From positions 90,272,001 through 90,336,000 of the forward strand of contig JANJGN010000021.1 of assembly GCA_026770705.1 (NCBI GenBank): a DNA stretch of 64,000 nucleotides. Direction: 5' to 3'. The notes under the pieces were generated by a model, which was given only the letters and a program-made list of their open reading frames with translations, made no database searches and was not told the origin of the DNA. The position numbers were made by a program, and so were the translations under genes. The stretch is from Isurus oxyrinchus (lineage: Eukaryota). Positions 2,821 through 62,714 of this stretch are shown here, in pieces; within the stretch, counting starts at the first letter, position 1; each line of letters begins with the position of its first letter.

Positions 2821-2886
2821 CTTGTGAAGCATGGAAATAACTGATATGCTGCTGCTGAAGTGCAAATGTATCCTCTTTTCTATTAG

Positions 2887-2920
2887 AAGTTGGAACACAT
2901 TAGCATGCTCAATCAGCAGG
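2887..2920 (+). CDS. Putative microexon, 34 nt, phase 0-1, KLEHISMLNQQ
   Basis: cctcttttctattAG|...CAGG|GTaaaa; splices in frame to the next exon. Confidence 0.5.
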
Positions 2921-3081
2921 GTAAAAAATTTAGTCCCATGATTTTCACGTCATTACCATATATATTTCTGTTGAAATGACTTCAATGCCTTTGGCAGTGT
3001 GACGTTATGCCAGATTGATGTTAACATCGCCAATCTAATTTAGCCGAGATTGAGAGCTTTTCAAAGAACATATTATTTCAG

Positions 3082-3090
3082 AAAGCAGCG
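3082..3090 (+). CDS. Putative microexon, 9 nt, phase 1-1, (E)SS
   Basis: tattatttcAG|AAAGCAGCG|GTaagg. Confidence 0.55.
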
Positions 3091-3351
3091 GTAAGGCCAG
3101 GTTTCACCATAATCTAAGCGAAGCTGATCAATGTAGCACTTTTAAGTGCTAAGATCCCCACACGTTTTGAACGTGGCAATCTATGATCATAAGTGGTTTG
3201 TTGATGGAAGACCTGAGTTTATGGGCGGCAGCTGGATTGAAAAATTCTGGATCATGATGCTCTCCAGTAAATTCATCTGAGAAAAGGCATTAATCAGGGA
3301 TATTTGTGATTTATTGATCATTGGATGGGAGCGTGAACATTTATTCTGCAG

Positions 3352-3368
3352 TGGAAAAAGACAGATGG
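3352..3368 (+). CDS. Putative microexon, 17 nt (one A short of an in-frame VEKRQM)
   Basis: atttattctgcAG|TGGAAAAAGACAGATGG|GTgagt; strong splice sites but frame-shifting as assembled. Confidence 0.5.
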
Positions 3369-3493
3369 GTGAGTGCTAATGCCAGCTTGGATTCCTGGAT
3401 CCAGAGGAGGCAGAGGGAGGCGGCCAACTAGATTTAAAAATGGAATTGGATGCAAATCATGTTCAGCCATATTTTGGCATTATTTTTCAACAG

Positions 3494-3520
3494 AAGACGA
3501 GCTGAAACGCAGAGACGTAG
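3494..3520 (+). CDS. Microexon, 27 nt, phase 1-1, (E)DELKRRDV
   Basis: tatttttcaacAG|...GTAG|GTaaga. Confidence 0.7.
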
Positions 3521-3703
3521 GTAAGAAAATATGCTTAAGGGAAGTAAACCCAGCCCCTTGATGCGCTTGAAATTAGAATTTGCTGATTCGATACAATTTT
3601 CTGCCGAGCTGTGCTTTGAGATCACACGAACAACAATAAGATTCCATACTAATATTAAGATTTGTTTAGATCGATTCTAATATTATCACTATTTTTACAT
3701 CAG

Positions 3704-3730
3704 AGCTGATAAAACACTTGCAAAATGATG
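3704..3730 (+). CDS. Microexon, 27 nt, phase 1-1, (E)LIKHLQND
   Basis: atttttacatcAG|...GATG|GTgagt. Confidence 0.7.
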
Positions 3731-4272
3731 GTGAGTAACGAAATAAAAGCCATAAAACCAACGGGTTACAACGTGAGATGCATCCTACACCATCTTGTAA
3801 TTTAGGAACGGGTGCATTTTGTGTCGAATTCATCATGGGATACTGCACCCAGCATCACCGTTGAATTTGTGAGGGTACCGTGCTTTGCGTGTTAAGCAAC
3901 GCTATAATGTTGAGAATTGGAATTTGAATATTACAAGTGGTACTGGAGGCAATAATTGCAGTTATTAATGGGGTGATAGGGAAGCTGAAGCCAATTTTGC
4001 ATTCCTGTCGAGTATTATTTCAGTTGGGTATCGTGCATGTCAAAATAATATGCATGTATTTGCTTATGTACTTCTTGAAAGCTAACTGGCAATGAAACAA
4101 ATCATGCACGGACAACATTGAGTATTGAGCTGTATCTACAATATTACCTTGGAAGTGAGGGGTGTGACATGGGAGGGGAGGGGAGGGCTTCGTGTGCATT
4201 TCAGGCAAGGAGGTGGATATAAACTTGAGCTGCAGTTTTGAAGACTATTATTTCAACATTATGTAATTTCAG

Positions 4273-4299
4273 AAGAGAAGATGCGTAAATTGAAAGAAG
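4273..4299 (+). CDS. Microexon, 27 nt, phase 1-1, (E)EKMRKLKE
   Basis: taatttcAG|...GAAG|GTaaaa. Confidence 0.65.
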
Positions 4300-4609
4300 G
4301 TAAAACGTAAATTCACTATTAGTTGAAACAGTGTTGCTAACGTGCACATAGAAATGAACAAAAATGGAAAAGCAACTGCTGGGAATTTTCCACATAGAAG
4401 GGTGTATTATACGAGAGACAAACTTTGTTAATATTTGAGGTCCAAGAGCTTACATGAAAGACCTCCACAGACTTTGCCTGAGTGTTCAGATATTCAGCTG
4501 CCTGATTATTTTGTTTTCCTAACATGTATGGTTGATAATTGAATGAGTTGACACGTAAATATACATACTGAAATCAGTGAAATATGTGGATAAGCCTTGA
4601 CTTTGTCAG

Positions 4610-4621
4610 ATGCTGTAAATC
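4610..4621 (+). CDS. Putative microexon, 12 nt, phase 1-1, (D)AVN
   Basis: ccttgactttgtcAG|ATGCTGTAAATC|GTatga. Confidence 0.35.
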
Positions 4622-5422
4622 GTATGAAGGCAAATCACAGCCTGTTGCATATGGTCCACATTGCAGCGTAATGAAGACTTAAAGGAGATACAAATAGCAC
4701 AACATTCTGAGCATCACCAACGCCCGGGGCTTCCCTACTGAATGAATTTCACCAAACTGCCAGCGAAATGATGCCCCAAATATTCGACTACATATTCGGC
4801 GACTCTTGTACCTACCTGAAATTAATTTCTAAACTCAGTTGCTTTTTGAATTGCTTTAAACTATTTCTCTTTGGTAGTAACTATTGTTATGTCTTTTAAA
4901 GAGAAAATGTTTCTCAATTAGATGAAAAAATATCTGCCTCTTCCATGAGCCCGATGAAACAGATCACATAGCAAACTGAACTGCAGATAGACAGTTTCCT
5001 GCTTTGAACGGTAATACATGAAAATTGTAAACTCTTATTTAATTGACACAAGCTAAATTACTCTCATTACCATGCTCTTTTGCGAGCTTTAGTTGAATTT
5101 TAAAATAAAATTTAAACAAAACAAATAAACCAACAGGGGTTAACACACAAAGTAGTTTTATTAAAAGCAGCAAATGCGGGAAAAAACTCAACCGATCCGT
5201 GAGCATCTGTGGAGAGAGAAACATAGTTACCGCTTCGAGTCTGTTTAACTCTTTAGCGCTTTTCAGCCCTTTTCTGTTTTTATTTCAGAGTTACAGCACC
5301 CACAGTATTTTACTTTTATCATAGAGTAGTTAAATGGTTGAATATTGATAACACTGCAATGAGTTGTAACCCGTATTTCTATTAATATTATTAGAAACAT
5401 TCCACATCTCTTATTTTCTTAG

Positions 5423-5458
5423 AACATGGCACGTTACAAACCATTAGTAAAGATCTTG
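5423..5458 (+). CDS. Microexon, 36 nt, phase 1-1, (E/Q)HGTLQTISKDL
   Basis: tctcttattttcttAG|...CTTG|GTaaga. Confidence 0.65.
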
Positions 5459-5689
5459 GTAAGAATATTAATGCTGATGTGCAATGCATGCGGTCAACAT
5501 CATTATTCAGCTTTATTGTTCTACTTTCTGACGCAATCTGTCAAGCAATCGTGCAATGCTCAGGCTTCATTTAGTTTTGCTTCGACAGGCTCAGTTTATT
5601 GATAAGTAATAAGAAAATAAGAAACACTCAGCTAAAACATTAAAACCTGCTGAGAAAATACAGATATGTAACTAGTTAGATAAGTCATG

Positions 5690-8600
5690 ACACGAGCAGA
5701 CAGTAGGGAAGGAACCTCAGACTTTGCAATTGACAAACAGGTTTGAAGTGCTCACAACCTGTGTGGATTAAAGTGAAGTCTGCAAGATGGATACGCTTCC
5801 TGGCCATTGCACTGTGGCACATGGAGCCATTCACGCAGGGGGAGCAAAAACAAATGCAGTGGCAGTAGGGGATAGTATAGTTCTCTTCAACAAAGAGCGA
5901 GAGTGCAGACTGCTATGTTGCCTGCCTGATGCCAGGCTTAAGGACATCTAATCAGGGCTGCAGAGGAACATGCTGTGGGAAGGGGACCATCCATTTGTCG
6001 TCGTTGATGAAGGTACCAATGACATAGGTAGAACTAGAAAAGAGGTCCTGCAAAGTCAGTATTATGAGCTAGGTACCGAATTAAGAAACAGAACGTCAAA
6101 GGTAATAACCTCTGGAAGCAATCATAGCAAAGTAAATGAATTGATGATCCATATTTAAGTAAATATACATGACCTGATAGCAATTAGGAGCATGTGGCTG
6201 CAGGACGACACATTTTGGGTCCTTATTATTGAAGGGTACATATATCTATGTAAAGGTGGAGGGATAGCACTGTTAATCAAAGAGGGCAGTGGTGTAATAG
6301 TGAGAGATGACAATGGTTCAGGAGATCAGGATGTCTAATTGGTTTGGGTGGAGAAAGGAATAATAGGGGAAATTCAATGGTGGGAGTGGTCTACAGGCCC
6401 CCTAACAATCGCCACAGTGTAGGACAAAGTATTCAAGAGAAAATATTTTGTGATTGTGATAAAGGGACGTCAATAATCATGGGTGATTTTAATCTACGCA
6501 AAAACTGGAAAAAATGTATTGGCAGTAGAAGCCTGGATGAGGTGTTCCTAGAATGCCTTTGATACATTTTCTTAGCGCAGCATGTTCTGGAGCCAAACAG
6601 AGAGCGAGATATATTAGATTTGGCATTGTGTGACGTAACAGGGTTAATTCCTCAGAGTAAAGGCACCCCAAGGCTGCAGTGGCCACAATATGATTGAATT
6701 TTACATCAAATTTGAAAGGGAGAAGACAGGTTCTAAGAGCAGAATCTTAAACTTAAATAGGGGAAATTATTTTGGGATGAAAGCTGCGCTAGCTAAAGTG
6801 AACTTGGAAAGTGGGCTAAAGTATATGTTAAGAGAGAAACCGTGGCAGCCATTTAAGGGGATATTTCAAACTATTCAGAATAATTTTATTCAAACTAAAA
6901 AGAAACATTCCAAAGGGAGTACCCACCATCCGTGGTAAACAAGAGATTTTAAGGAAAGCATCAAACTTAAGGAAAAAGCATACAACTTTGCAAAAATGAG
7001 TGACAGGCAGATGATTGGACAGAATGTAAAAATGGCAGAGAATGACTAAAAGGTTAATTAATAGAAAAAAGTTAGAGAATGAGAAGAAGCTAGCAAGAAA
7101 GTAAAAACGGAGAGCACGAGTGTGTACAGGTGTTTGAAAAGGAAAAGATTATGTCAAGTAAGTGTTGGTCCTCTAAAGGGAGACTGAGGGGAGTTAATAG
7201 CAGACGATAAGGGAGTGGCAGAAGAAATGAACAATTATATTGTTTCTGTGTTCACTATAGAGGATACAAAAACATGCCACTAATAGCTGCCAATCGGGAG
7301 GTGGTTGGGAGTTTGAAATTTGGTGAAATTGAAATCTGCAGGGAAACGGCACTGAGCAAATTGTTGGAACTGCAGGCTGGTAAATCTCTGGATCCCGAGG
7401 TTCTTAAAAGAGGTGGCTAATGAGATAGCCGATGTGCTGCAGTTAATTTTCCAAAATTTGCTAGATTTTGGAAAGGTTCCATCAGATTGGCAAGCGGCAT
7501 TAAAGAAGGACTGGATCTAGAAAGCAGGAAACTGTAGACTAGTTAGCTTGACCTCTATTGTGGGGATTTTATACCAATCGATCATTAAGGAGTTTATGGC
7601 TGTGCACTTAGCAGAGTACAAAGCAATTAGGAAGAGTCAGAATTATTTTTTGAAAGTAAAATCACGTTTAACCAATTTATTGGGGTGTTTTGAAAGTCTA
7701 ACATGGGCAGTGGATAAAGGGGAGAATGTAGACCTAATGTACTTGGATTTCCAGATGGCATTTGGTAAGGTGCCACATCAAATATTATTTTGGAAAATAA
7801 AAGCGCATGGGTGTAGTGGGTAAAATGTTAGCATGCATAGAAAACCAGCTAGCTGGCAGAAAGCAGAGAGTATGCATGAATGTGTTTTTTTCTGATTGGA
7901 AGGATGTGACGAATGGTGTCCCACAGTGTTCTTTACTGGGGCCTCGACTTTTTAATATTTACTTCAATGATTTAGATGAGGGAGTGGAGATATAGTAGCT
8001 AAATTTTCAGATGACACACATATATCTAGGAAGATATGCTGTGAAGGGGACATGCAGAGGTTGTAGATGGATATAGATAGATTGAGTGAGCGGGCAAACA
8101 TCTTGCAAATGGAGTTTAAGGTGAGAATATGTGAAGTTGTTCACTTTGACAGAAAGACACAAAAAATAATATTACTTAAAAGAACAGCTGCATAATCCTG
8201 GGTTGCAGTGATCTAGATCTTCTACAACAGGAGTCACAAAAATAGAGTCTGCAGGTAGAGCAAATGAATACGAAAGCTAATGGAATGATATCCTATATTA
8301 CAGGAGGGATTATACACAATAGTAAGGAAGCTATGATTCAGTGATATAGGGCAGAGGTGAGACCGCAACTCAAATACCGTGTGCAGTTTTGGTCTCCTTA
8401 TTTAAGGAAGGAAGTAAATGCATTGGAGGCGGTTCAAAGGATGTTTAGTAGATTTATACCTGGAATTATCGTGTTGGTTTATAAGGAGAGGATGGACAGG
8501 CTGGGATTATTCCCACTGGAGTGATTTGATTGAAGTATGCAAGGCCGTGATTGGCCTTGACAAGGTGGAAGTCAGAAGGATGTTTCCTCTTGTTGGTTAC

Positions 8601-8905
8601 TCCAGAACTAGCGGGTACTGTTTTAAAATTAGCGCTCGCCCTCTTAGGACAGAGTTGAGGAGAAATTTTATCTCTCCAAGGGTTGTACGACTTTGGAGTT
8701 CGCTGCCTCTGAAGGTGGTGGAGACGGGGTCAAAAAATATTTTCAAGGCAGAGATTCTTATTTTCGCAAGGGATTCAAAGGTTATCGGGTTGAGATGGAA
8801 GTGTGGAAATCGAAACAGAAGAAGATCAGCCTTGATCTTATTAATTGGCGGAGCCGGCTCGAGGGGCCGAAATGTGTACTGCTGATCCTTTTTCTTATGT
8901 TCTTA
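5690..8905 (+). mobile_element. Near full-length degenerate CR1 LINE: ORF1 esterase-like end, ORF2 endonuclease and RT, 3' UTR
   Basis: Fragments GTNDIGR (ORF1), VGVVYRPP and IIMGDFN (endonuclease), YLDFQMAFGKVPH and [10 protein letters not shown] (RT), C-terminal RRNFISPRVVRLWSSLP; many stops and frameshifts. Confidence 0.92.
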
Positions 8906-9054
8906 TGTTCAGGGAACAGCAAACTACTGTTCATTCGAAATCTAGATTAGCTGCCCGTAAATATCTTATTGAAGACGCTTTAGCCAGTTGCAAATGCATG
9001 AAACCAGCATCCACTTCTTGCACATTTGATTCAAAACTCCTCTGCTCATTATAG

Positions 9055-9075
9055 TTTCCCAGATTAGTTACCCAG
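9055..9075 (+). CDS. Putative microexon, 21 nt, phase 1-1, (V)SQISYP
   Basis: ctctgctcattatAG|...CCAG|GTatcc. Confidence 0.4.
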
Positions 9076-9248
9076 GTATCCGGGGGAATATGTCAGTAAA
9101 TGAATAATTGCTTTATTTAGGATATTAACAGTTTTAGTTGGACACCAGGGTCATTGGCTCAGCACGAACACATAGATATGCAAGCTATTTTAAAATGAAG
9201 GATGCAATTTACCATCACTAATTTGAATTATGTTTTTTTTTCTGAAAG

Positions 9249-9275
9249 AACGACTGTTGCGTTTAAAAGATGCAG
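9249..9275 (+). CDS. Microexon, 27 nt, phase 1-1, (E)RLLRLKDA
   Basis: ttttttctgaaAG|...GCAG|GTaatg. Confidence 0.65.
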
Positions 9276-9349
9276 GTAATGCATATTACATTAATACGTT
9301 ATGGTACAATTCTAACGTAAGAGAAAGTCTGGTCTTGCCAATTTGAACT

Positions 9350-9670
9350 GCACAGAATCACACAGTGCAGAAGAGTCGCTTGGCCCATCGAGTTTGCAGC
9401 AACACGTGAGAATCACCTCAACTACCTACCTAATCCCATTTACCAGCACGTAGCCCATAGTCTTGAATGTTATGACGTGGCAACTGCTCATCCAGGTACA
9501 TTTTAAAGGATGTGAGGCAACCCGCCTCCACCAACATCCAAGGAAGTATATTCCAGGCCGTCACCACCCTCAGGGTAAAAACGTTTTTCCTCACATTCCC
9601 CCTAAACCTCCTGTCTTTCAATTTGAAATTATGTTACCTTGTGACTGCCCCTTCAACTAAGGGGAACTAA
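9350..9670 (-). mobile_element. CR1 LINE 3' end fragment
   Basis: Minus-strand peptide RRFRGNVRKNVFTLRVVTAWNILP, typical of the CR1 ORF2 C-terminus. Confidence 0.85.
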
Positions 9671-10005
9671 AACTACCCAAGTCTATCCAACCTTTGGCAT
9701 AAAAATAAAAGATCGTGAAATAAACCATGATATTACACCACAAATAGTGGACCTTTAACAGGATGTTTCAGGTGAGGAATTTTCAAGCAACACGATACGC
9801 CTAACCACATAAAATAATGCAAGGTATCTAACCCAGTGTTTTATGAAGCGCAACAGAGGAGGAATTAGAAACGGCTATATTTGGAAGAAATCATTATAGA
9901 GTCTAGCTTCTTCACAGCTGAAAGGAAACATGCCAATGGGTGATTCAAACCACGGACACACATAGTACCCAGAACTTGAGCTGCAGCTATTTTCGTGGTT
10001 TATAG

Positions 10006-10017
10006 AGCTGAATAAAA
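10006..10017 (+). CDS. Putative microexon, 12 nt, phase 1-1, (E)LNK
   Basis: ttttcgtggtttatAG|AGCTGAATAAAA|GTgagt. Confidence 0.55.
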
Positions 10018-10485
10018 GTGAGTATTTTAATGAAGTTTGTGAAGTTAGCGCATCAGCAGCCGATTTTTGGTGAATCTCAAATTGGAAGTGCAAGATGGGA
10101 AGCGCACTAGGACACCACTGTAACGATTTGTGCCTTTAACCATGCAAAGACCCATGGAATCCCTGATTTTTCAAGTGAACAATTCCTTCCATTGCTGTTT
10201 GCACTGTACATTTCGAACTGGTCTCATTCATGATCTAGGCATTCAGAACCAATAACAACTTTTAACTTCAGAATGTGCCAGAGTGATTTCAGTATGGATC
10301 ACTTCAAGATTGCCGGACGGGGGCTATCAAATCTTCCAGTTCGTTTGTTGGGGTTTATACATTTTTGACATAAAAAAATGAATACCTTTAGCACCATCAG
10401 AACACGGGTGAAGTGATTTGCTGTACCCCCAATGGAATTAGTTTTATATCCAAATATCCAGCATCTTTCTTGTTTAAGCAGATGG

Positions 10486-10582
10486 GTAGATAGATAGATG
10501 GATGTTTGGATATATAGAAATATATAGATAGATAGATAAATAGATAGACAGACAGATAGATAGATAGATATATTGATTGATA
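10486..10582. repeat. Imperfect (GATA/GACA)n microsatellite
   Basis: Direct reading of tandem gata/gaca units. Confidence 0.85.
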
Positions 10583-11628
10583 GCAATAAAAAAACAAGCG
10601 AACGTGCATATAAATAAATACACAAAATCAAACAAACAAACAGACAGGAAATAAAAGGTAGCTGAAGAAATAATAAGCGAATTAATGTTTTGAAGTATTA
10701 TTTGCTTTGTGCTTCATGAGGAGAAAATTGAATAGAACAGGAAGAGGCATAACTTGTGTGATAACACGGACAATTCCAGAATCCAATCCCCAAGTTTCTG
10801 TGATCGAGACTACTGCATTCTGAATAGAGGACAGATTTTGTACAAATCATTAAATGTCAGAAATATTCAGAAAGTCACGCAGCCATTGAGCATGAAGTGA
10901 GTTAACGGTTGTGGTTAATTTCTTTTACACGAACCCTAACTCCAACCCTTTATTACAGGTTTGCAACATCCACAAATTTCGCTTTTGAACATATTCTTCA
11001 TTTTAAATGTCCCATATGATAACTTAATTCAAAATTATGCGCATTTAATTGCAATTTCAAAATGGTATGTGTTAATTGTACGTTTGGTACAGAGAATGAA
11101 GAACTTCGGAAGCTTGGCAGTAAGTATCAATTCTTATCGAATAATGTTGTTGCTTCTCTCAGTCTTATTTTTCCATAGGATACTCAAAGTTGAACGACTA
11201 TTGCATTAGATTTTTTTCCCAATTGTTAGGTATTGTTAGACCTCAAGTTATGCAATGTGTGATACAATGACTTATTGCTGACAAACGGGAAATGTTGCTG
11301 AATCTTCTCATTTTTGGCTAATTAAGACAGACACAAAAAGGCCAAATTACAAAAGGAGCAACAATTTGTGTTGCACTAGAAATGGGTGCTGATTGATTGG
11401 CAAAAAGAGCCTGATTGGTCGAGGCATTGCTACGGAGAATACACTGGGGAACTCCTGCCGCCCAACCCCCACCGCAAGCTGTTGTTTAACCAAGAACAAC
11501 ACAATTCCTGAACAAAGAGATAAAAACAAAAACAAAATACTGCGGATGCTGGAAATCCAAAACAAAAACAAAAACAGAATTACCTGGAAAAACTCAGCAG
11601 GTCTGGCAGCATCGGTGGAGAAGAAAAG

Positions 11629-11667
11629 AGTTGACATTTCGAGTCCTCATGACCCTTCGACAGAACT
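11629..11667 (-). ncRNA. Minimal type-I hammerhead-ribozyme-like motif in the Penelope-like terminus
   Basis: Minus strand reads AGTT-CTGTCGA-A-GGGTC-atgag-GACTC-GAAA-TGTC-AACT: stems I and II form, but the core is CUGUNGA rather than CUGANGA. Confidence 0.55.
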
Positions 11668-12794
11668 AGGTGAATCCAAGGAAGGGGTGAAATATAAGCC
11701 AGTTTAAGGTGGTGGGTGGGTGGTGGGGGGGGGGGGGGGGGGGTTGGTGGTTTGGGTGGGGGCAGAGAAGTGGAGGTGGGTGGTGTGGTTGTAGGGACAA
11801 ACAAGCAGTGATAGAAGCAGATCATCAAAAGATGTCACAGACAACAGAACAAAAGAACACATAGGTGTCGAAGTTGATGATATTATCTAAACGAATGTGC
11901 TATTTAAGAATAGTCGGTAGGGCACTCAAGGTATAGCTCTAGTGGAGGTGGAGAGTGCATAAAAGATTTAAAAATATTTAAAAATAATGGAAATAGGTGG
12001 GAAAAGAAAAACCTATATAAATTATTGGAAAAAAACAAAAGGAAGGGGGAAGAAACAGAAAGGGGGTTTCAAGTGAAGCAACATTTCACTTGCATTTCCC
12101 CCAACTTAGTCTACTGCATTCGTTGCTCCTAATGTGGTCTCCTCTACACTTGGGAGACCAAACGTAAACTGGGCGACCGCTTTGCAGAACACCTGCGGTC
12201 TGTCTGCAAGAATGACCCAAACCTCCCTGTCGCTTGCCATTTCAACACTCCACCCTGCTCTCTTGCCCACGTGTCTGTCCTTGGCTTGCTGCACTGTTGC
12301 AGTGAAGCCCAGCAGAAACTGGAGGAACAACACCTCATCTTCTGACTAGGCACTTTACAGCGTTCCGGACTGAATATTGAATTCAACAACTTTAGGTCTT
12401 GTCCTCCCTCCTCCAACCCCACCCCCTTTCTGTTTCTTCCCCCTTCCTTATGTTTTTTTTCAATAAATTATATAGATTTTTCTTTTTCCTACCTATTTCC
12501 ATTATTTTTAAATATTTTTAAATCGTTTATGCTCCCTCCACCCCCACTAGAGCTGTACGTTGAGTGCCCTACCATCCATTCTTAATTAGCACATTCGTTT
12601 AGATAATATCACCAAATTCGACAACTATGTGTTTTTTTTTTCTGTTCTCTGTGACATCTTTTGATGATCTGCTTCTACCACTGCTTGTTTGTCCCTACAA
12701 CCACACCACCCCCCTCCATTTCTCTCACCCCACCCAACCCCGCCCCCGCCCCACCTTAAACCAGCTTATATTTCACCCCTTCCTTGGATTCACC

Positions 12795-12833
12795 AATTCT
12801 GTAGAAGGGTCATGAGGACTCGAAACGTCAACT
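12795..12833 (+). ncRNA. Minimal type-I hammerhead-ribozyme-like motif in the Penelope-like terminus
   Basis: AATT-CTGTAGA-A-GGGTC-atgag-GACTC-GAA-ACGT-C-AACT, with palindromic ACGT stem III. Confidence 0.55.
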
Positions 12834-14679
12834 CTTTTCTTCTCCACCGATGCTGCCAGACCTGCTGAGTTTTTCCAGGTAATTCTGTTTTTGTTTTTGT
12901 TTTACAATTCCTGAACATTTTGTTTTTGTCCTGAAAAGGGCAGGTCCCTGAGTCTGAACACATTAACTTATACCAAGCTGACGGGAGCCTTATTGCGAGC
13001 CAGACTGGTCATTAAAATTGATTGTTTTTGTAATTCGTGGCACATGCATGTTTCTTTAGCAGGTGCTGTCCAATTTCAAAAACTCATCTGCCATTAGGCA
13101 CTATGCTCTATATTTTGCATGCCATTGCTGGTTGTGTATCGTATGTAGACTGATTTTTGGAAACAGCCTAAGGGAAGTGCTGTTTGGCGCCCGCAATTAG
13201 ATGTTGGACATACGACATATGTACTCGACATTGCAGCGACATTGAAATGCATACACAACATTGCTGATTTGTGTGATTGGTGAACCAGCTTTTTGGCTTG
13301 CCAGCAGCATCCTGTTAATGGAAAATAGGTATTGCTACTGCTTAGCAGCAGCATGAAACGCCCAGCTTCATCTGTTGTTCAACTACTTGAGATAACTTAT
13401 CCTTTAGGGTAACTTGATATATTGTGGGCATCGTTTGGTCCGAAAGTGGTGGCTTTAGGCCCATTCGTGAGAATGCACATCAACCAATGAACTAAAGGAG
13501 ACTACAGTTATCCCACATGGCATTTTTGTTGTACTTGCTCCTGGTGTGAAGTTTGCTGGGTGAGCAAATGGTTTGGCTCTATTTACATGATTGCTGATCG
13601 GATGAATCGTATAGAACTAAGAACTGTAGGCATGCCAATGTGCATGTTAACCAGATTAATCATGATTGCTACGATGACGCATCGCTGAAGGAGACTATTC
13701 GGTTCTTCAGGTCTGCGCTGGTCCTTTGAAAGTGCTATCCAATTCGTTCTAGTCCCTCATTTTTTTTTCCGCTGTAGCACATCAAATTTCGATTCAAAGC
13801 AGTTTTTTTATTGAATCTGCTTCTGTTACTATTCCAAACATCGATTGCAAAGTTAGGATCATTCCCTGGTCTGACATTGGCCCCTGTTTTTGGAGAATAT
13901 GCTTTGCCAAATTTAGGTGAATTAGGTTTCTCTGATATTTATTGCGAAACACCTTTGATAAAAGGAATAATAACGTGACTGAGTTCGAGATGGTTCATTC
14001 AATTTAATTTGTTACATTACTTGGCTTTTTTCCCGTGATAATCAGTCCAAGAAAGTAACGCTTTATTTAATACAAAATTAAGTGTCATGATCAGAGCGTC
14101 TGATTCTCAGGGGGCAGCGGCAGCTAGTTAAACCGAGTTCCACGGGCAAGGTCTTCCAGAAAATGCATTCCTTATTTAGAGGCGTTGTTGTTCTGCTTGC
14201 GACAGTCATGACTGGGTGGATCTACCAAGGACACATCTATCTGAAAACCCCGTAAACAATATGTACACTTTAAGGGTTGCTCAAATTATTTTATTCCTTA
14301 AAAATAAGCACAGTATATTACAATCACCTAATTTATTTTTATATGTTTCCCAACACAGTATTTGCGTTCCTCAGCTTGCCCCACTGATATTTCGAGCTGG
14401 AAGTTTCTGTGTCTTCCCTCAGGCGGCAACTAGCTTCATTTTACCCCCAGAAATCAATGTTACGCTTTCAGTGAAGGTGTGAATAAAATACGCTTAACAA
14501 TCAGATATTTAATCAGCTTTGTTTACTCATCTACCTATCTGCTTACTATCTCAGCCAATGCCTCCCGCCAACACCCTCTCTCACCCAGCCACGTCGCTAG
14601 CTTTACCACTGATTAACAATTAGAATTAGGAGGTGAAATAGAGAAAGCATAAATATAAATGTTCAACTCTTCTTTGCAG

Positions 14680-14715
14680 ATACAAAGGAGTTGGATAAAA
14701 GGCTTCAAGATGCTG
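14680..14715 (+). CDS. Microexon, 36 nt, phase 1-1, (D)TKELDKRLQDA
   Basis: ctcttctttgcAG|...GCTG|GTacgg; shares the LxKRxxD motif of later 36-nt exons. Confidence 0.7.
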
Positions 14716-15035
14716 GTACGGCGATGCAGCATGGCTTTAAATGTATTATAATTGCAGCATTGGAAGCTAATTTGAACTGGGAAAAGACAATCAGAGCATA
14801 TATTCTTCATTGGTCACGTTTGAATGCACATCGGTTAACAAGCTAAATAAATAAAAGATGATTTGAAAGGTGAACTTCAAGTCCTGATTTTACACAATGT
14901 AAATAGATTCTCAGAAAATTCTGGGGAGATGAGGGTGAGGGATCATATATTGGCTTTCATTTTGTTATTTGTGTCATTCCTTAAACATTATGGGAACATA
15001 AACATCCCCATACATTGATGTATATCGCTTTACAG

Positions 15036-15062
15036 AAAAGGAACTGCTTGAAAAATCTTCAG
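15036..15062 (+). CDS. Microexon, 27 nt, phase 1-1, (E)KELLEKSS
   Basis: tcgctttacAG|...TCAG|GTaaca. Confidence 0.65.
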
Positions 15063-17266
15063 GTAACAATCTTTGCTATCCGTTCCTAACACACTGTGAA
15101 CCAAATTTATATTGGTAGAATAAAAATAATTCAATTATCATTGATAATGTTGTTAAGCAAATTCAATCAACATTGTGTGAATGTTGTGCACTAAATTCAG
15201 CATGAATATAATATAAATTTGTTCTCACGGTACAAGTGGTGTTGGGCATCTTTGCAGGAGGGAAATAAAATAATCCAAGGGACATACTCTAAATGCTAGC
15301 TAGTCAGTACGGCGGAATGGATGCCCGCTTGTTCCACATTATAAAAGGGATCCTGGTGCTGAACCAATAATTGACTCTCAGGGCATAATTTTAGGGACCC
15401 CTGCAGGCAGGTTTGAAGGCAGTAGGGAGATTGTTGCCCAGCACTCATCCATTCCCCAATTCAAATGGCTGGAGGGGCGGGTAATGAACAATTGAGAGCT
15501 TTATCCTGTCCAGCCTCACTTTTCAGGCAAATGAGACACATTTGGGAACATGCCGGATACTTAAAAATAGACCCTCTTCAGGTGGTGGGCCGTTACAGTG
15601 GGTTGGGCACCTTCATAAACATGAGAACATGGGGTGCCTAACAGATGATCCGGTCCTTTTATGTTCTTCCTACCAACAACTCCCCCCTTCCTTCCCCGCC
15701 GGCCTTTCCATGAACAACCATACGTCTCTCTGCATAAGCCTTCACCCTCACCTCCCCTCCCGGCTGAAACACCAGTTCATATCTCGTTCTGGACACCAAC
15801 ACTTCTGCTCTGGGGCCTGTTTGTAGCCCTGTGGCCCCATTGTCAGTTCTGCATTACTGGGGCAGCAGAACTCTCTGAGGGGCTTTTCCTCTCGCAATAG
15901 GTTGGAAGCCTTGACTTCGGCAAACTCACTTTTCTCAATATTTTGTGTCACAGGGGTTGGAGGTGTCATCGGAAAAAAAAGTCCTTGTCCTTCGGTGTGG
16001 GTTGTCCTCATCAAGGTGTTGTGAGCGCAGTGCAACTACAATGCTCTAACAGTGGCCAAATTCTAAAGGGTATATTTCTAATGATTTTCAGCGGACAGTG
16101 AGACATCGTGTTTGAAGTGCATAGATATTTGAAAGCTGAATAACATATTGAGAAAGTAATTAACAAAGCAAAGGGAAACTTCTGTATTTTTAAATAGAAT
16201 TATTGTGCGCAAATTTAGGGAAGTAATGCTGAACTGATGCTGCTTCCTTCTTTAGTTCTATACAACATTCTCACTTTATTCACGCTGCTCTGAATAATTC
16301 ACTGCTTGACATTTCGGCCAAAAAATAGTTTTCATTGTTCCAAAATACATGAACAAAACTTCACACAATGATGTATTTTGCTAGTCTATTTTAGGTGCAA
16401 ACTGCCCATTTTGAAAGTGCCAGTTGCACCAGAACTCTACTCAAAGCTCCAAGAAACTGAAGCCTTCCCTTCTGTACATTGCACCAAGCCTTGCATTGAT
16501 CTGCTCCGTTATCTAATTTTTACTCTAGTTAGCTCATGCTGTGAGCAAGAAATTATCTTGCAGGTTATACGTTTTAGCCTCTACCCTAGCTCATTCATAT
16601 GTATATGGATATCGCTATCTGCCTAATTCATCTATCTTGTGCCGAGGTTACCCCATATTATGGGTGACACACTTCCCCTTGTAGAAAATGCTGCACCTAC
16701 TCAGTGATGCAATTTTCCTTGCCACAGTTAAGTAACACAAGCTTCCAGACTCATGAAGGCCATTGCAGACATGCCATTCTTCCACCTTAAGTATAGAATC
16801 GCCTTTTCACAAATGCATTTCTGCTTTTTGCTGTGTTCTTCTGTGCAGTCACTTATCCACTGATGCCCTTGAGGCAACCACACTTCTACAAGGTTTGATC
16901 ACGACCATCGTTGAGTATAGTGTGAGGATAGCAGACAATCTGATGGCTGCAGCAGTTCCTGCTTCTTCCATTATTCCCAACGTTGAAACATTTGGTATTA
17001 TGCAATGTTCTTTTTGATGTATGGTGCCATATTCTCTCGTCCACACTGAGGCATCTTAGTGACTCGAGTTACCACTCAAACTTTTAAATCCTGAGCTAGA
17101 GGACAAACAGCTTTAGACAAATGTGGCCGCACAAGAAACGGAAAATGACCTGAATTTCCAACATGCACTGACTTCAATTGCCTCAAAAATAGTACTTGCT
17201 TTATTTCTTTTTTTGGACTGGTCAGGTTTCTTGGTTGCAATATCAAATTTTGCGATTGACTCGAGA

Positions 17267-17383
17267 TCTTCAGGTGGTGGGCCGTTACAGTGGGTTGGGC
17301 ACCTTCATAAACATGAGAACATGGGGTGCCTAACAGATGATCCGGTCCTTTTATGTTCTTCCTACCAACAACTCCCCCCTTCC
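17267..17383 (+). repeat. Apparently exact direct copy (about 117 bp) of 15575-15691
   Basis: tcttcaggtggtgggccgttacagtgg...actccccccttcc at both sites; identical peptides in the ORF track. Confidence 0.92.
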
Positions 17384-17384
17384 C

Positions 17385-17948
17385 CCATAAAGTGACTCAA
17401 TTGAGGCAAAGGCATAAGGATGGGCCTCCCCTGTCCCATTGTATGCTTGCAGACAATACGGGGGATGTTGAAGGGCTGTGGCATGGCAAATTGGTGATCT
17501 AATGGGATTCCACCAGCTGCAAAGCAATTGGCAACGGGGCAGAAAGTTTAGCTTTGTGCCAATGCATAGCCCCCTAAATATTCCGCCCAGTCCGCCCAAT
17601 AGGCAAATTTAATGCCTATTATTATGTTAGTGTCTCTTACTGTTGCTCAGCTCATGATGCATACATCTAAAGGGCTTAATTGTGCCCCTGCAACCCATGG
17701 CCGTGCGGTCTTTGCAGGTGAAGCGGGGGACAGGTCGTGGGACTGGGCGGAATATTTAGGGGGCTATGCATTGGCACAAAGCTAAACTTTCTGCCCCGTT
17801 GCCAATTGCTTTGCAGCTGGTGGAATCCCATTAGATCACCAATTTGCCATGCCACAGCCCTTCAACATCCCCCGTATTGTCTGCAAGCATACAATGGGAC
17901 AGGGGAGGCCCATCCTTATGCCTTTGCCTCAATTGAGTCACTTTATGG
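17385..17948. repeat. Apparently perfect inverted repeat, arms 17385-17593 and 17740-17948, spacer about 146 bp
   Basis: The ORF track shows the same peptide GLGGIFRGLCIGTK...SIESLYG on opposite strands; arm ends checked by eye. Confidence 0.92.
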
Positions 17949-18529
17949 CCATTTAAACGCTCTTTTGGAGCACTTAATATCGCAGGATTTTTGTTCCCTA
18001 CTGAAAATTCCCAGATGCTTCTGCGGCCAGACAACTGCTGGCCATTTACTTGTCAGGTAGCCAACAGAGGTGGTCTGCTTCCCAGAATGGGATGGAACGC
18101 CCACTCAAGTCAATTAGTATCCACCCGACTTTAAGTTGCAACAGCGCAAGTACTAGGGAATGGGCAGTGTGAACGCATGCCCTACATCTTCGTGTATGTG
18201 TGGTTGGTGGTAATCTGCCACAAATCCAAAACTCCCGCCGTGATTGATTTTTAACCTTCCCCTCCTTAATGCTCACTCAGATTCCCCTTGATTGTTGTAT
18301 TAGCTGAACTAATTCAACTATTATCTCTTCCTCATGAGGCTCTTCGCACAACCACTGAACCACCTATTGTTCTGTAACATCGCATGCTGATTTGTTGTAG
18401 TTTTCTCCGATAATTATTTGTTCTCAATGTGGTATTTCTGAACCGAGCATGCTCCATGCTGTCGCTTTGAATCCTGCTGTCTCTCATAAGCTCTCTCCCT
18501 CTGACTTTTTCATCTTATTTTTTTTTCAG

Positions 18530-18565
18530 AAATAGAAATGCTGAGGAAGCGTGTGAAAGATATAG
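18530..18565 (+). CDS. Microexon, 36 nt, phase 1-1, (E)IEMLRKRVKDI (older paralog of unit exon E)
   Basis: ttatttttttttcAG|...ATAG|GTaaga; nearly identical to 55693-55728. Confidence 0.8.
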
Positions 18566-19419
18566 GTAAGACAAGAAATGACACTAGGAACACTGGAACA
18601 TAAAATCTAAATTTAAATCTTCATTAGTATACTTTTTTTGTGTTTGAATCAACGTAGTAAATGTTATTTCTAAAATTGTAAGGAAATTTCTGACCTTTAT
18701 GCCTCCCTGTTAATATTTCCGTTTTATGAGTCCCCAATCTCTGAGAGAAATGACAGCATTAGGTCCTTTCAAGGAATTCACGATACAGATAATAGAGTCA
18801 TTGACCACACAGGAGGCCCATCGATTATATGCTGGTTATACACGGGGCATTTCAATCAATTCCACTATCCCGATGGACAACAATAGCCCTACAGGTTTAT
18901 TTCCTTCAAGTGTCCATTCATATTCTTGTGTTCAAATCTTTGATTGTTTCCACTTCTCCACCATTCTTAGCAGCGAGTGCCAGGCCATGGCCAATCCCTT
19001 GTAAAACAAAATCGCCCTTCACAAAACTTGGAAGCACTGACAACGTATACAAAACTTGGAATCATTTCGAAATGTGAGAAGATAGTTAGAAATTCAAAAG
19101 GAAATTGGCAAGCTGATGGTTTGGGCGGACAGGTGACAGGCAAAGTTCAATGTAGGAAAGTGTAAAGTGATTCATTTTGTTGGGAAGGGAATGGAGAGAC
19201 AATAAAAACAAAGTGTGTAACACTAAAGGGGAAGGGGAAGAGGAACGTGTCTCATCTTCAGCCTCTCACAGATCATCATACTCCTCCAAAAATGCTGTGG
19301 CCAGAATTTGAAGCAGTGCTGCAGTTGGGTATTAACCTCAGTTGTTAATATTTAAGCATAACTTTGCCCAATTTGTACTCAATGGAAGAAGCCAAAGATT
19401 GCTTATGCTTTGATATAAC

Positions 19420-29761: not shown

Positions 29762-29788
29762 AAACGGACCTGCATATGAAAGATACGC
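29762..29788 (+). pseudogene. Unit 1 exon B, 27 nt, (E)TDLHMKDT, donor mutated GT to AT
   Basis: ttcccttacAG|...ACGC|ATaaga, versus GTaaga in units 2-4. Confidence 0.6.
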
Positions 29789-31206: not shown

Positions 31207-31242
31207 AAATGGAAACACTGAAGAAACGCCTTGATGAAAATG
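31207..31242 (+). CDS. Unit 1 exon D, 36 nt, phase 1-1, (E)METLKKRLDEN
   Basis: ctacattttcAG|...AATG|GTtagc; synonymous differences versus units 2 and 3. Confidence 0.75.
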
Positions 31243-32278: not shown

Positions 32279-32314
32279 AAATAGAAAAGCTAACGAAGCG
32301 AGTAAAAGATACAG
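32279..32314 (+). CDS. Unit 1 exon E, 36 nt, phase 1-1, (E)IEKLTKRVKDT
   Basis: ctatttggtgtAG|...ACAG|GTaaga. Confidence 0.75.
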
Positions 32315-43875: not shown

Positions 43876-43902
43876 AAATGGACCTGCATATGAAAGATAC
43901 AC
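43876..43902 (+). CDS. Unit 2 exon B, 27 nt, (E)MDLHMKDT
   Basis: ttctcttacAG|...ACAC|GTaaga. Confidence 0.65.
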
Positions 43903-45327: not shown

Positions 45328-45363
45328 ATATAGATACACTAAAGAAACGCCTTGATGAAAAGC
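45328..45363 (+). CDS. Unit 2 exon D, 36 nt, (x)IDTLKKRLDEK
   Basis: ccctacattttcAG|...AAGC|GTtagt. Confidence 0.7.
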
Positions 45364-46405: not shown

Positions 46406-46441
46406 ACATGGAAAAGCTGAGGAAGCAAGTCAAAGACACAG
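46406..46441 (+). CDS. Unit 2 exon E, 36 nt, (x)MEKLRKQVKDT
   Basis: ttatttggtgtAG|...ACAG|GTatgg. Confidence 0.7.
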
Positions 46442-52329: not shown

Positions 52330-53198
52330 GTATTCCTCAAATTCTGTTTTTTTTTGTATAGCTCTTTCTTTTGTTTTCTTTTAAACCAAATTTTTCCTCT
52401 CTGTCTCCCAATGCATAGTACTTAGAGTAAGATGGCATATCAATGAGATGGTGTTAAAAATGTTATTGAGAAATAATAATAACACCCATAGAAACTTTTC
52501 ATTCATTCATCGTTTGGAGCGTCAACAACAAGGAGGGCATTTGTTTCCCATGCCTAATTCCACTTAAGTCGCTTTCTTGAACCACTGTTATTCATGTGTA
52601 GTAAATGCCTGCTCACCACTGACAGTAGGTGCACCAAAGAATTTTTTTAAGCCAGAGACAGTGGGAGAACGACGAAATGTCTTTAATTTAGAATTTCACT
52701 TATGTGGCGTACTTAATGCGGTAAACCTTCCCACGTTCAGTTTGAAGATGAGGAAGGTAATGTTAGGCACTGAGCCATTGTATGATATATTATGGTAAAC
52801 GGCAGAAAACTTCGTCAGAGTGTTTATATTTTACGGTTAATTTAAGAGTGTGTCCATTGTTCCACAATTATATCTAATTAGATTTTTTGTAAGAAACAGA
52901 TACTTCCGCTAGAGATTCAGCTGCAAGTGACTGCCGAGCCTCTACTAAAGTGTATGATTAAAATCAATTGACGAAATAGTGTGTTTCCTGGTCTTCAAAG
53001 CATCGATTCCAAGTCTCCAACGGCTGTTTCAGTGTCGCAGGAATTCACAGAGGAGTCGAGGCAGTGTATATGTTCCCATCGCAAATTTGAATTTCAAACA
53101 CATTATGGCACAGGTGCGCGCGTCGGGTAATTCTCTGCTTGTAAACGTACAAAATGATCAACAACTGAAAGATCAAAGTTGAACATGCTCTCTTACAG

Positions 53199-53225
53199 AA
53201 ATGAATCTGCATATGAAAGATATGG
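53199..53225 (+). CDS. Unit 3 exon B, 27 nt, (E)MNLHMKDM
   Basis: ctctcttacAG|...ATGG|GTaaga. Confidence 0.68.
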
Positions 53226-54625: not shown

Positions 54626-54661
54626 AAATAGAAACACTGAAGAAACGCCTAGACGAAAAGG
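54626..54661 (+). CDS. Unit 3 exon D, 36 nt, (E)IETLKKRLDEK
   Basis: ccctacattttcAG|...AAGG|GTtagc. Confidence 0.72.
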
Positions 54662-55692: not shown

Positions 55693-55728
55693 AAATAGAA
55701 ATGCTGAGGAAGCGTGTAAAAGACACAG
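55693..55728 (+). CDS. Unit 3 exon E, 36 nt, (E)IEMLRKRVKDT
   Basis: ttctatttggtgtAG|...ACAG|GTaagg. Confidence 0.75.
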
Positions 55729-58700: not shown

Positions 58701-61700
58701 ATTGATTTAAAAGTCAATACGACTAATAAAGTACCAATTCACTGCAATAATACTCTCAAAGGGCAATAATACCAATCCAATCTATGCCAGATTAAGAATC
58801 GTTCTTTTTAAAGGCAAGCTTGCTTGGTAGGGCTAGAAAACTGTAGCTGAGAGCGGAGTCTCAGTTTTACAGTTAAAAGTCTATTGACATCCAGGGCGGC
58901 TCTTTTGAGTTGACAGGGGAGCCATTTGGCTATTCCCCATGAGGAGAGCGCACCTTTACTTAAGAGGGGTCTTTTGTTGGAATATTGCCCGGACCATTAG
59001 GCAGGGCTGACGGGTGAAAAAGTGTCATAGGCAGATGGGTATTTTTGTATCATTTGGAGGCACTACCTCCAATGAGGAGTCAAGATAGACTAGAAAGAGG
59101 ACGAGGAGAAGAGGGGAAAACAGGGAGGCTCAGTTTGCTGTGGTTCCTCAGGATGTGGGCGGATCATTTCCTAGGGGGTCAGGATGAACGCAGAAACCCT
59201 TAGCGGTGGTGCAGACGAACCTATGCCACCCAAAGAACATAGAGGCACAGATCTAGCTACTTGCAACGGACTGCATGGTGCCTTTGAACCATTTGTCACA
59301 TTTGGACCAAATTCTCCTCACCACATCAACATTGGCGGGTACCTGCTCCCTCTTCGCATGAGACTGCTGTGTTTCCTCTTTCTCTTTCTGTTCCTCTTTC
59401 TCGCAGTGCTCTGCACGAACAACAGGTAATGCGTATCATATGCTGCATCAACAGAGCTCCAAGGGGGACCTCACTGCATCTGGAGGTAGACTCAGTTGTT
59501 CTTGAAAGCTTCACCCTTTGCTCCGATGATGCAGATATACATGCTTGTCAATAGTAAGATGTAAACAGTTCCTCTGTACCAAAAGGTAGGAGACTTGCAG
59601 AAATTTAAATTCTTCCATCTTTGAAGTTTGAAACTGTTGTTAGAGATTGTTGAAGTCAGGTATTTGTTGACCATCTCAGACACGAGCCGAATGGCTTCGT
59701 TCTCTGGTGTAAGCATCTATGATTTTATTCGCTAAAATATAAGATAAAATCAGAAAATGCTCGAAAATACTTAACAGGACTGGTAGCGTCTGTGGAGAGA
59801 AAAAACAGAGTTAACGTTTTGAGTCCGCATGACTTCTTCATAGCTGAAGGCAGGTAGAAATGTAACGTGTTTTATACTGTGGAAGAGACGGGATGGACTA
59901 GGTAGATCAAAATAAAAGGCCAAAGATAGGTGGGAGCTGAAAAAGATTTGACAAAGACACAAGGTAAATTGAAGGTAATCAAATAACCTTGGTGACTAAA
60001 GCATGTACGAAAATTTGCATAAAGATCAGGTAGTAGAAGCTTTTAATAGCAAAAGAAGGGTTAGTGTTCCCTGAAATTAAAACATAAGAACAAATTACAG
60101 GCTAGCCTTGTGGGTTGCGTGTTGGGAAAAATAAACACTTACAGGTAAACAATTAAATTGCCTTACATGAGTGGACTGGAAGATTTGCAAACCTTTGCTA
60201 AGTTAGTAGATGTGTTCGTTTTATCATCTGGTGGGTCACTTGACTCAGCCAAAAACAATTGGGACCGATTTTCTGTTTGTTCTGATAGATCTAATACCTA
60301 TTCCCTGTCCTTTAAACTGATGTTATCCTCGCCATCCTCTCTGACGCAAATAAAAAGACACTCTGCGAATCTCATTATGCTACACACATCCTCACCATGA
60401 TGCAAATATGCCCTTTGCCAGCCCCAGCATAACGCTTCCTTTCATTTCACTGTAAATAAGGACATCAGGTCATGGTGAAATGGAACAGGAATAGTCTATA
60501 TGCCCGCCGAAATTCGGCCGCCATTCAATAACACGAGGTTGATCCTTCAACTCAGACGCACATCTTGCCCACTGCTCATATCCTTTAATTCCCTGAGAGA
60601 CAAAAGACCTGCCCACCTCAAACTTAATTTATTCAATGTTAAAGTATCCTCAACTTCTTGTGGTAGAAAATTCAATTTAAAAAATCTTCTTTTTGAGGGA
60701 AGACAATTCATCTCATCTCAGTCCGAAACTACACTATCCTTATACTGGGAATGTGCCCGAGTTGTCTGGCTTCTCTCACCAAGGTTAGGAACGTTCATAG
60801 CGATGAAGTTTTGCACCAAGCACAAACCCAACGTACCCCAGCCAACTTTCTTGAATTCAGTGGGCACGTCAACTAATACGGGTGCCCAGCCCTCAGGGCC
60901 AGTAACATCGTGCAGGGGCACAGGGCAAGTACCAAACAAGCTATCTGGTTCTTGTCTGCCTTTTCCCTGGGACGGTGAAGTCGTTGGTTGGCTGTTTTTG
61001 ATTGATCATCCCCAGCTGCACTTACGATTGCAGCTGTGTGAAGCCAGAGCATTATGCAGATTAACAATTCTAAGGGCGTAAGGGCTGGCCGACCCTCACC
61101 TGCCCACCATATCGTGGGGGACAGATCAGGGTGAGAGGAAAGTCAGCAGGCTAGTAATCCGTCTTATTTTTCTTGACCAAACCCTTGCATCGTTGTCATC
61201 AAATGTGGGGAGGCGACAGCTGTTCTTTCCAAGCCCCCAATCCCAAACCTTTATTATAGACAGCTGGAAGTGCTTTGTGACATGGAGGAATGTTATGCTG
61301 CCGCCATGTCATTGGATCTGCAGCAGTAATACAGCACTTTAGGACCTGCGCAAAATATTTTTTTGTCCTTGCTCTTTTGTTACACCTAAGAATAAGGTCG
61401 GCAGAAAATTGACTTCCATCTTTAATTACTTAATTGATTCATGGCAACTATTAACCGTCTTTTTGCTTAGTCATACCACTAGAAATATAACAGAAATTCT
61501 ATCCAATTGCATTGGTAATATTTAAATTTGTAATTCTTGGCAATAGTAATATTTTTTGAAAACATGTCATTGCGACCCTGTAACACTCATTAATCCTCTC
61601 ATATAACGCCTTGTTCATATTTACTGATGGCATCCTAAAACACCCAGACACTAAAATAATCATAGCAAACAAATTTATGTAGAAAATTCGCAGATCATTT

Positions 61701-61791
61701 CCAACGCTAGTTAGAGGTCATGTTGTGCTATGAAGATATCTTAAATTCACACTACGAAAGGTATTCTCGGATCTCGCTTGACCTCTTCTAG

Positions 61792-61827
61792 AAATGTTAA
61801 TGACGTTAGATATAAAACAAAAACTCG
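61792..61827 (+). CDS. Unit 4 exon A, 36 nt, (E)MLMTLDIKQKL
   Basis: gacctcttctAG|...CTCG|GTattc. Confidence 0.5.
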
Positions 61828-62687
61828 GTATTCCTCAAAATCTGTTTTTTTTTTGTACAGCTCTTTCTTTTGATTTCTTTTAACCCAAATTTTTCCTCTC
61901 TGTCTCCCAATGCGTAGTATTTAGAGTAACCTGGCATATCAGTGAGACAGTGTTAAAAATGTTGAGAAATAATAATAACACCCATAGTAACTTATCATCC
62001 ATTCATCGTTTGGAGCGTCAACAACAAGGAGGGCATTTGTTTCCCATGCCTAATTCCACTGAAGTCGCCTTCTTGAACCGTTGCCAACCATGTGTAATAC
62101 ATGCCTGCTCACCACTTCCAGTAGGTGCACCAAAGGATATTTAAGCCAGAGACAGTGGAAGAACGACGAGATATCTTTAATTTAGAATTTTATTTATGTA
62201 GCATACTTAATGTGGTAAACCTCCCCAAGTTCAGTTTGAAGATGAGGAAAGCAAAGTTAGGCACTCAGCCACTTAATGATACATTATGGTAAATGGCAGA
62301 AAAATTCGTCAGAGTGCTTATATTTTAAGGTTACTTTAAGAGTGCGTTATTTGTTCTGCAATTATATCTAATTAGGTTTTGTGTAGGAAAAAGGTACTCC
62401 CGATAGAGATTCAGCTGCAAATGACTGCCCAGCCTCTTCCAACACATATGATTAAAATCAATGGACAAAATAGTGTAAATTTCCTGCTCTTCAAAGCCAA
62501 ATTCTCCAACTGTAGTTTCAGTGTCGCAGGAATTCACAGAGGGGTCCAGCAGCCTACATCTTCCCATCGGAAATTTGAATTTCAAACACATTATGGCACA
62601 GCTGCGCGCACGGGGTAATGCTCTGCTTGTCAACATGAAAAAGCGAACAACAAATGAAAGTTCAAAGTTGAACATGTTCTCTTACAG

Positions 62688-62714
62688 AAATGGACCTGCA
62701 TATGAAAGATACGG
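62688..62714 (+). CDS. Unit 4 exon B, 27 nt, (E)MDLHMKDT
   Basis: ttctcttacAG|...ACGG|GTaaga. Confidence 0.68.

Follow-up and report, generated by a model that had tools for sequence, protein, structure and literature searches.

Plus-strand microexons in an Isurus oxyrinchus contig probably belong to a very large coiled-coil gene unit of a cartilaginous-fish B30.2 family

A stretch of 64,000 nucleotides (nt) of the shark Isurus oxyrinchus (the window; contig JANJGN010000021.1, C21 for short, positions 90,272,001-90,336,000, with window positions counted from the first letter) carries a series of very short open segments on its plus strand. These probably belong to a real, functional, and very large microexon gene unit of a cartilaginous-fish family that combines a coiled coil with a B30.2 domain, and they are likely to be coding exons of one such unit, W, in its 3′ half. 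Our preferred reading, to which we give a probability of about one half, is that W is a headless gene of its own, making a soluble coiled-coil rod of more than 1,000 residues that would be a partner or decoy for B30.2-bearing paralogues. An earlier note, made from the letters of the window alone, had proposed that the plus strand hides a gene built of symmetric microexons and encoding a coiled-coil-like chain. Enrichment over controls, an exon order shared with relatives, and a heptad pattern all uphold that proposal.

Enrichment, shared order, and heptads

We use a blind rule that takes splice scores only, a length of 27 or 36 nt, and a frame open in phase 1. In the window, the rule passes 15 of 93 candidates on the plus strand vs. 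1 of 66 on the minus strand, and 60 shuffles of the window give a mean of 1.35 and a maximum of 5. An equal density on the minus strand or in shuffled DNA, which the earlier note had named as part of the outcome that would speak against a gene, is thus not what we observe. Three of the 15 plus-strand segments (at 35822, 37446, and 43283) lie outside our curated set and are probably background. When the tandem array described below is left aside, the counts are 7 vs. 0. Over 564 kb, the rule passes 75 of 710 candidates on the plus strand vs. 10 of 590 on the minus strand; among 86 plus-strand candidates of 27 or 36 nt there, stops occur in 11 when read in phase 1 vs. 54 and 39 in the other phases. 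Exon lengths peak at 27 and 36 nt, with a smaller peak at 24 nt. A chain of 50 exons has no stop, and none of its 1225 possible forward junctions creates one.

The order of the exons is shared with other species. The genomic order of 27 exons (10 of them in the window) scores 368 against a ray model, while permutations average 203 and reach at most 272 (0/500 as high); against a catshark model, the score is 318 vs. 201 for permutations. For the 10 unique exons of the window alone, 0/500 and 2/500 permutations score as high with the two models. RefSeq models of this kind rest on RNA.

The hydrophobic power of the spliced chain peaks at a period of 3.5 among 11 periods tested, and the heptad continuity of the natural exon order exceeds that of 299 out of 300 permutations. 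Because the chain shows this heptad pattern, a coiled-coil rod is predicted.

The exons of the window

The curated window set, which spans 3494 to 62714, consists of 20 segments on the plus strand, all in phase 1-1: ten have 27 nt, nine have 36 nt, and one has 12 nt. More than 20 segments had been described earlier, starting at 2887 and including lengths of 9 and 21 nt; the plus-strand phase 1-1 anatomy stands, as do the sizes 27, 36, and (once) 12 nt, but the set has 20 members, starts at 3494, and holds no 9-nt or 21-nt exon. The described AG before and GT after are present in 19 of the 20 segments (the exception, 29762-29788, has AT as donor), and Glu, said to be the usual junction residue, is found at 14 of 19 junctions. 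The former start segment, 2887-2920, is 34 nt long, not symmetric, and runs into a stop if entered in phase 1, while the peptide claimed for 3352-3368 (17 nt, again not symmetric) would need one A that is absent from the DNA; the ray model has nothing corresponding to the place of these two. For a piece of 9 nt at 3082-3090, the acceptor is weak, the score falls under the cut-off, and there is no ray-model counterpart. We also dropped a candidate exon at 90.268 Mb, with a 7/8 peptide match to the ray model, for want of a usable acceptor.

In what follows, paired numbers are acceptor/donor splice scores from matrices that are our own approximations, and all exons are on the plus strand. Five exons are collinear with the ray model: four of 27 nt at 3494-3520 (6.9/9.3), 3704-3730 (5.7/9.7), 4273-4299 (2.7/7.0), and 9249-9275 (6.5/8.2), and one of 36 nt at 5423-5458 (7.9/7.1). 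The 12-nt exon at 10006-10017 (6.5/8.3) is less certain, its length being below the reach of the homology test. The 27-nt exon at 11093-11119 (3.6/6.3) matches the catshark model by tblastn (82% over 11 aa), and it is followed by exons of 36 nt at 14680-14715 (10.4/7.3) and 27 nt at 15036-15062 (5.6/7.3). The first copy of a 36-nt type that we call K36 is at 18530-18565 (12.1/9.3).

The remaining exons are copies within the array. Type M27 is found at 29762-29788 (the broken donor), 43876-43902 (6.9/6.6), 53199-53225 (6.6/7.4), and 62688-62714 (6.9/9.5); type T36 at 31207-31242 (weak sites, -0.2/4.5), 45328-45363 (a very weak donor, 2.2/1.3), and 54626-54661 (weak sites, -0.3/4.8); and K36 at 32279-32314 (3.2/11.3), 46406-46441 (5.2/9.2), and 55693-55728 (5.5/12.0).

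High-copy repeats, recognized by depth and retroelement-like reading frames, occupy 5700-8900 and 11500-12900 and fill the larger introns. A 117-nt exact duplicate (15575-15691 and 17267-17383) lies beside a perfect 209-nt inverted repeat (17385-17948), and the contig of a relative skips 17271-17601 within this region. The structure at 15575-17948 is either a recent template switch or an assembly artefact.

Duplicated exons under purifying selection

The plus-strand tandem array covers 26000-64000 and continues to about +83 kb, in units of about 9.4-14 kb with approximate boundaries. Its units carry the exon types M27, T36, and K36, with 76-87% identity by self-blast. Copies have diverged by 17% in introns and 13% in exons, and among exon copies the proportions of replacement and silent differences are pN 0.072 and pS 0.298. 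Counted as distinct variants, there are 10 replacement vs. 11 silent changes for sites in a ratio of 72:18 (binomial p=0.001), and M27, T36, and K36 all show the same pN<pS trend. The 15 exon copies of the array have no stop or indel, and the unit alignment has 80 gap runs. The duplicated exon copies are under purifying selection (p=0.001).

Unit W and its neighbors

W extends over C21 89.78-90.39 Mb (to 90.386), about 600 kb, contains the window, and is one of several tandem units. The extent proposed earlier, 2887-62714, was far too short; W is about 10 times the window. Plus-strand microexons of the window types occur throughout the contiguous sequence that we read, 89.97-90.54 Mb, and in seven out of eight blocks sampled across 89.83-89.97 Mb, reaching back to 89.78 Mb. 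About 100 candidates in W score over the threshold (72 in 89.97-90.39 Mb, 8 in 89.78-89.82 Mb, and 20 in 65 kb of samples), a list that includes some false ones, and we estimate more than 100 exons and more than 1,000 residues. A second tandem array inside W, at 89.89-89.94 Mb, has one 36-nt exon type every 1.4-2.2 kb (10 copies in the 24 kb sampled), and toward the end of W two near-identical 36-nt exons are separated by 3.7 kb.

The order of the cluster on C21 is V, W, X, Y, with a B30.2 exon in V and Y and none in W and X. V ends in a B30.2 exon at 89.722 Mb. X (90.416-~90.83 Mb) starts with an ATG exon at 90.416 Mb, and Y (90.920-91.349 Mb) with one at 90.920 Mb, ending in B30.2 at 91.348 Mb. 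These ATG exons match the N-terminus of the catshark model (71% identical for Y), as does a copy at 90.858 Mb, probably a relic start, for which no donor is seen and which hardly any microexons follow. No B30.2 separates W from X, none is found in 90.74-90.93 Mb, and a genome search gives no family B30.2 match in 90.536-90.74 or 90.93-91.33 Mb, two stretches covered by that search rather than by direct reading.

What kind of chromosome is this? In a search of the 4.98-Gb genome, 31 of 33 class I matches of the major histocompatibility complex (MHC) fall on C21, the nearest at 93.60 Mb, 3.3 Mb from the window. About 128 of 150 scored PRY matches (150 scored among 313 candidates) and most matches to the butyrophilin-type immunoglobulin (Ig) domain IgC are also there, so that C21 is a chromosome with MHC class I, TRIM-type, and butyrophilin genes. 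Butyrophilins on the MHC class I chromosome are described for several cartilaginous fishes in part of PMC12841164. For a neighboring exon, the closest named relative is the basking shark, at 93% identity.

A B30.2 family in cartilaginous fishes

The earlier advice to look for B30.2 exons in the flanks paid off in V and Y. The divergent exon of V came from upstream sampling; its top six non-self matches are the exon at 91.348 Mb and five on another contig, C34, four of which sit just downstream of microexon pattern matches. The exon at 91.348 Mb matches catshark XP_038671249.1, a 945-aa model with the same repeats and a B30.2 (65% identity). Further members occur in bamboo sharks, whale shark, a ray, a skate, and a chimaera. 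The RefSeq models (XP_038671249.1, XP_072329362.1, XP_072329363.1, XP_069775418-428, XP_069775384-390, XP_038672306-310, and XP_042191566-568) share the repeat order of W, are fragmentary, and are named automatically, by similarity only, zinc-binding protein A33-like, golgin-like, trichohyalin-like, or TRIM-like. The gene had been called probably lineage-specific, which does not hold in a narrow sense: it has relatives in chimaera, skate, ray, and sharks under these misleading names. Since the family is present in chimaera, rays, and sharks, its origin predates their split.

Among 11 family models, Pfam finds SPRY in 8 and RING, B-box, or Ig in none. No RING or B-box motif appears on the plus strand of 939 kb, in a scan whose controls recovered RING in 3/3 TRIMs and B-box in only 1/3. 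Hydropathy gives no membrane segment in 9 homologue models (19-residue maximum 0.6-1.5). Within what was searched, family members thus read from their sequences as a coiled coil joined to a B30.2 of a distinct kind; RING, Ig, and membrane segments were not found. In an unrooted tree of 33 B30.2 rows (14 family, 5 butyrophilin-linked, 14 other), the 14 family rows fall on one side of a branch with support 100/100; the branch is long and, being unrooted, points to no sister group, and the family does not group with the 5 shark butyrophilin B30.2. The best solved-structure match is BTN3A1 (E 8e-23).

A genome-wide 36-nt pattern gives 66 matches, 12 in the C21 cluster and 19 in a C34 cluster, while a control gives 39 scattered ones. 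The corresponding 27-nt pattern was rejected as mostly repeat noise (73 matches, 6 on C34 and 0 in the C21 cluster). The second family cluster, C34 2.7-7.5 Mb, has five B30.2 exons (two minus, three plus), and its genes at 6.40 and 7.50 Mb resemble a megabase-scale duplicate pair. Longer proteins sought with a C34 B30.2 exon gave none at 1e-15 among 832 candidates. SPRY-bearing clusters in the Atlas (1277, 1579, and 1802 aa, at scores of 0.93, 0.91, and 0.76) are a lead to candidate similar proteins in other chordates. The literature that we searched, a set exclusive of subscription papers and supplements, contains no description of the family. PMC10707392 lists an entry from shark skin mucus called zinc-binding protein A33-like, a name common to many TRIM-like models and not linked to the family.

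Coiled-coil register and exon skipping

A 36 + 27 pair makes exactly three heptads, and a single exon does not. An array unit, K36-M27-T36, encodes 33 residues with one register break per unit; if T36 is left out, there are 0 register breaks over 95 residues. T36 is also the exon with weak or lost donors, which is suggestive of T36 skipping to preserve register, an idea tempered by the conservation of the T36 coding sequence despite those donors.

In relatives, isoform models are distinguished by internal cassettes whose lengths are 6, 8, 8, 9, 9, 9, 9, 11, 12, and 23 residues; one further gap of 16 residues is at the N-terminus, and three comparisons show end differences only. Because the cassettes have these lengths, cassette skipping is likely real and often not register-neutral. 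It had been argued that any subset of exons could be skipped with no frameshift. The reading frame is indeed kept, as seen in the stop-free junctions and in the relatives' cassettes, but the heptad register would shift: exons of 9 and 12 residues are not heptad multiples, and therefore any-subset skipping would break the register of the coiled coil.

Comparison with known systems

The earlier parallel with chicken BG and butyrophilin genes is well founded in the heptads, the split-codon microexons, and the MHC linkage. According to passages of PMC5938342, the BG tail is a heptad rod encoded by many small exons that split codons, with splicing variation, in tandem MHC-linked genes; these passages and others in PMC8813856 describe a varying exon count and a tail with no B30.2, and pairing of BG tails with orphan B30.2 domains is raised in PMC8813856. 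Unit W resembles BG in its many short exons with split codons, the long heptad rod that they encode, its MHC-linked tandem cluster, its exon-number variation, and its lack of B30.2. However, most BG exons have 21 nt, a single heptad apiece, and there are 27-37 of them, whereas those here are 27 or 36 nt, number more than 100 in W, and keep register only in ordered combinations. BG also has signal, IgV, and membrane exons, and none were found here.

Butyrophilins (BTN/BTNL) share the heptad region followed by B30.2, the chromosome, and the structure match; here the rod is far longer, the B30.2 is on a separate branch, and no IgV, IgC, or membrane segment was found. The butyrophilin-type C-terminal B30.2 is present in V, Y, and relatives, and not right after W. 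A butyrophilin-like gene at C21 109.09-109.10 Mb has a 120-nt membrane exon and candidate tail exons of 27, 24, and 27 nt before its B30.2. TRIM proteins of class C-IV are similar in their soluble coiled coil, C-terminal B30.2, and place as cluster neighbors, and different in that our family has no RING or B-box and has a microexon rod. Because RING and B-box are lacking, the family is not expected to act alone as a ubiquitin ligase. The TRIM coiled coil is an antiparallel dimer. TSBP1/C6orf10 and triadin, two other suggested parallels, combine a membrane anchor with a charged small-exon tail; both are absent among the named homology matches, with no direct sequence comparison made. By the tests made, W does not appear to be a BG, butyrophilin, or TRIM member.

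A headless rod and its alternatives

If W is a headless gene, it would be transcribed and spliced into a long, soluble, dimeric rod. B30.2-bearing members would keep two binding heads a fixed distance apart, and W would pair with these paralogues as a length-setting partner or as a decoy, by analogy with the headless heptad rod of the chicken BG tail. The rod may have been lengthened by genomic duplication of exon blocks, and its length may be tuned by skipping register-preserving 27+36-nt pairs. The ray model family XP_069775418-428 also lacks B30.2.

Several observations weigh on the other side. No RNA junction is seen for W. Three small, presumed RNA contig sets over 2700-18700 have no exon junction among the joints shown, a null that carries no weight either way with exons of 27-36 nt and sets of that size; they have no depth over several exon bins, and no RNA source is listed for 2800-5600. 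The start exon of W was not found by homology, by an ATG-donor scan, or by a genome pattern (which gave only X, Y, and the relic), nor was its last exon, and about 87 kb of W within 89.82-89.97 Mb is unread. The selection counts rest on four related copies. Two array exons, 29762 and +64046, have lost the GT donor, and T36 donors are weak (4.5, 1.3, and 4.8 in the window, with the last copy weak too). Simulated single-exon skips do not consistently change the count of register breaks. The ray family with no B30.2 may be an incomplete model.

Could the rod instead have no immune role and belong to the cytoskeleton or another structure, in the manner of tropomyosin or of a testis-specific protein such as TSBP1? 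This is possible, if on balance improbable, and it overlaps in anatomy with a headless gene. Parts of PMC5938342 and PMC8813856 describe a soluble BG tail (zipper protein) that displaces tropomyosin and regulates actin-myosin. Slow transcription of a 0.6-Mb locus with more than 100 introns would also fit a long-lived cell rather than a fast response. However, the B30.2 domain of the family, the expansion of paralogues, and the MHC linkage point to ligand recognition.

Somewhat less probable is that W, X, and Y are one 1.57-Mb transcription unit, with alternative starts that all splice to the single family B30.2 exon downstream of them, at 91.35 Mb. Every junction is frame-compatible, no terminal exon is evident after W, and the ATG exons of X and Y (132 nt, with acceptors, open in phase 1-1) could be used internally. 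But a symmetric ATG exon may be mere duplication heritage, an open frame says little in a lead of only 14 nt, and catshark conservation begins at about the Met. Moreover, such a unit requires 0.96 Mb of read-through, and the ray model ends with no B30.2. In its fullest form, which we consider unlikely, the locus would be modular, with several starts and a few hundred frame-neutral 27/36-nt exons leading to one B30.2 exon, and would encode a cytosolic receptor family.

That W is a decaying duplicate whose protein is no longer made would account for the missing start, end, and RNA and for the two dead donors of the array. We find it very unlikely: purifying selection acted while the array introns diverged by 17%, the 50-exon chain is free of stops, and a run of a relative's DNA spans the locus at about 96% identity.

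Finally, a membrane protein of the BG or butyrophilin type could have W as its cytoplasmic tail, its Ig and membrane exons having been missed, given the linkage to the MHC, heptad exons that split codons as those of BG do (in the part of PMC5938342 already cited), the BTN3A1 match, the unfound start, and Ig V-like exons at 89.41-89.46 Mb. There are three of the latter, the first matching V-set (E 4e-07) and the second having an in-frame stop. This alternative is the least probable of all, since the Ig exons sit beyond the terminal B30.2 exon of V, none of 135 upstream open reading frames (at least 58 aa, C21 89.723-89.782 Mb) matches an Ig family and 2 match reverse transcriptase, no butyrophilin IgC (PF22705) lies in 89.15-92.7 Mb among 110/110 candidates, the family B30.2 is not nested among the 5 shark butyrophilin ones, and the homologue models have no Ig or membrane segment. 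For the flanking transmembrane exons to which the earlier note had pointed, there is one atypical hydrophobic candidate, at 89.728 Mb.

Significance

A multi-megabase family by the shark MHC has been broken by automatic annotation into misnamed fragments. It links a BG-like rod of microexons with a B30.2 head of the TRIM/butyrophilin type and has no RING, Ig, or membrane part. This bears on how the architectures of TRIM, butyrophilin, and BG proteins came about, and on a proposal from work on BG in which tails without a head associate with orphan B30.2 domains. If true, a modular 1.57-Mb locus would place two binding heads on a rod of programmable length and register. The family also allows a clean test of whether the register of the coiled coil, and not only the reading frame, constrains the order and duplication of exons.

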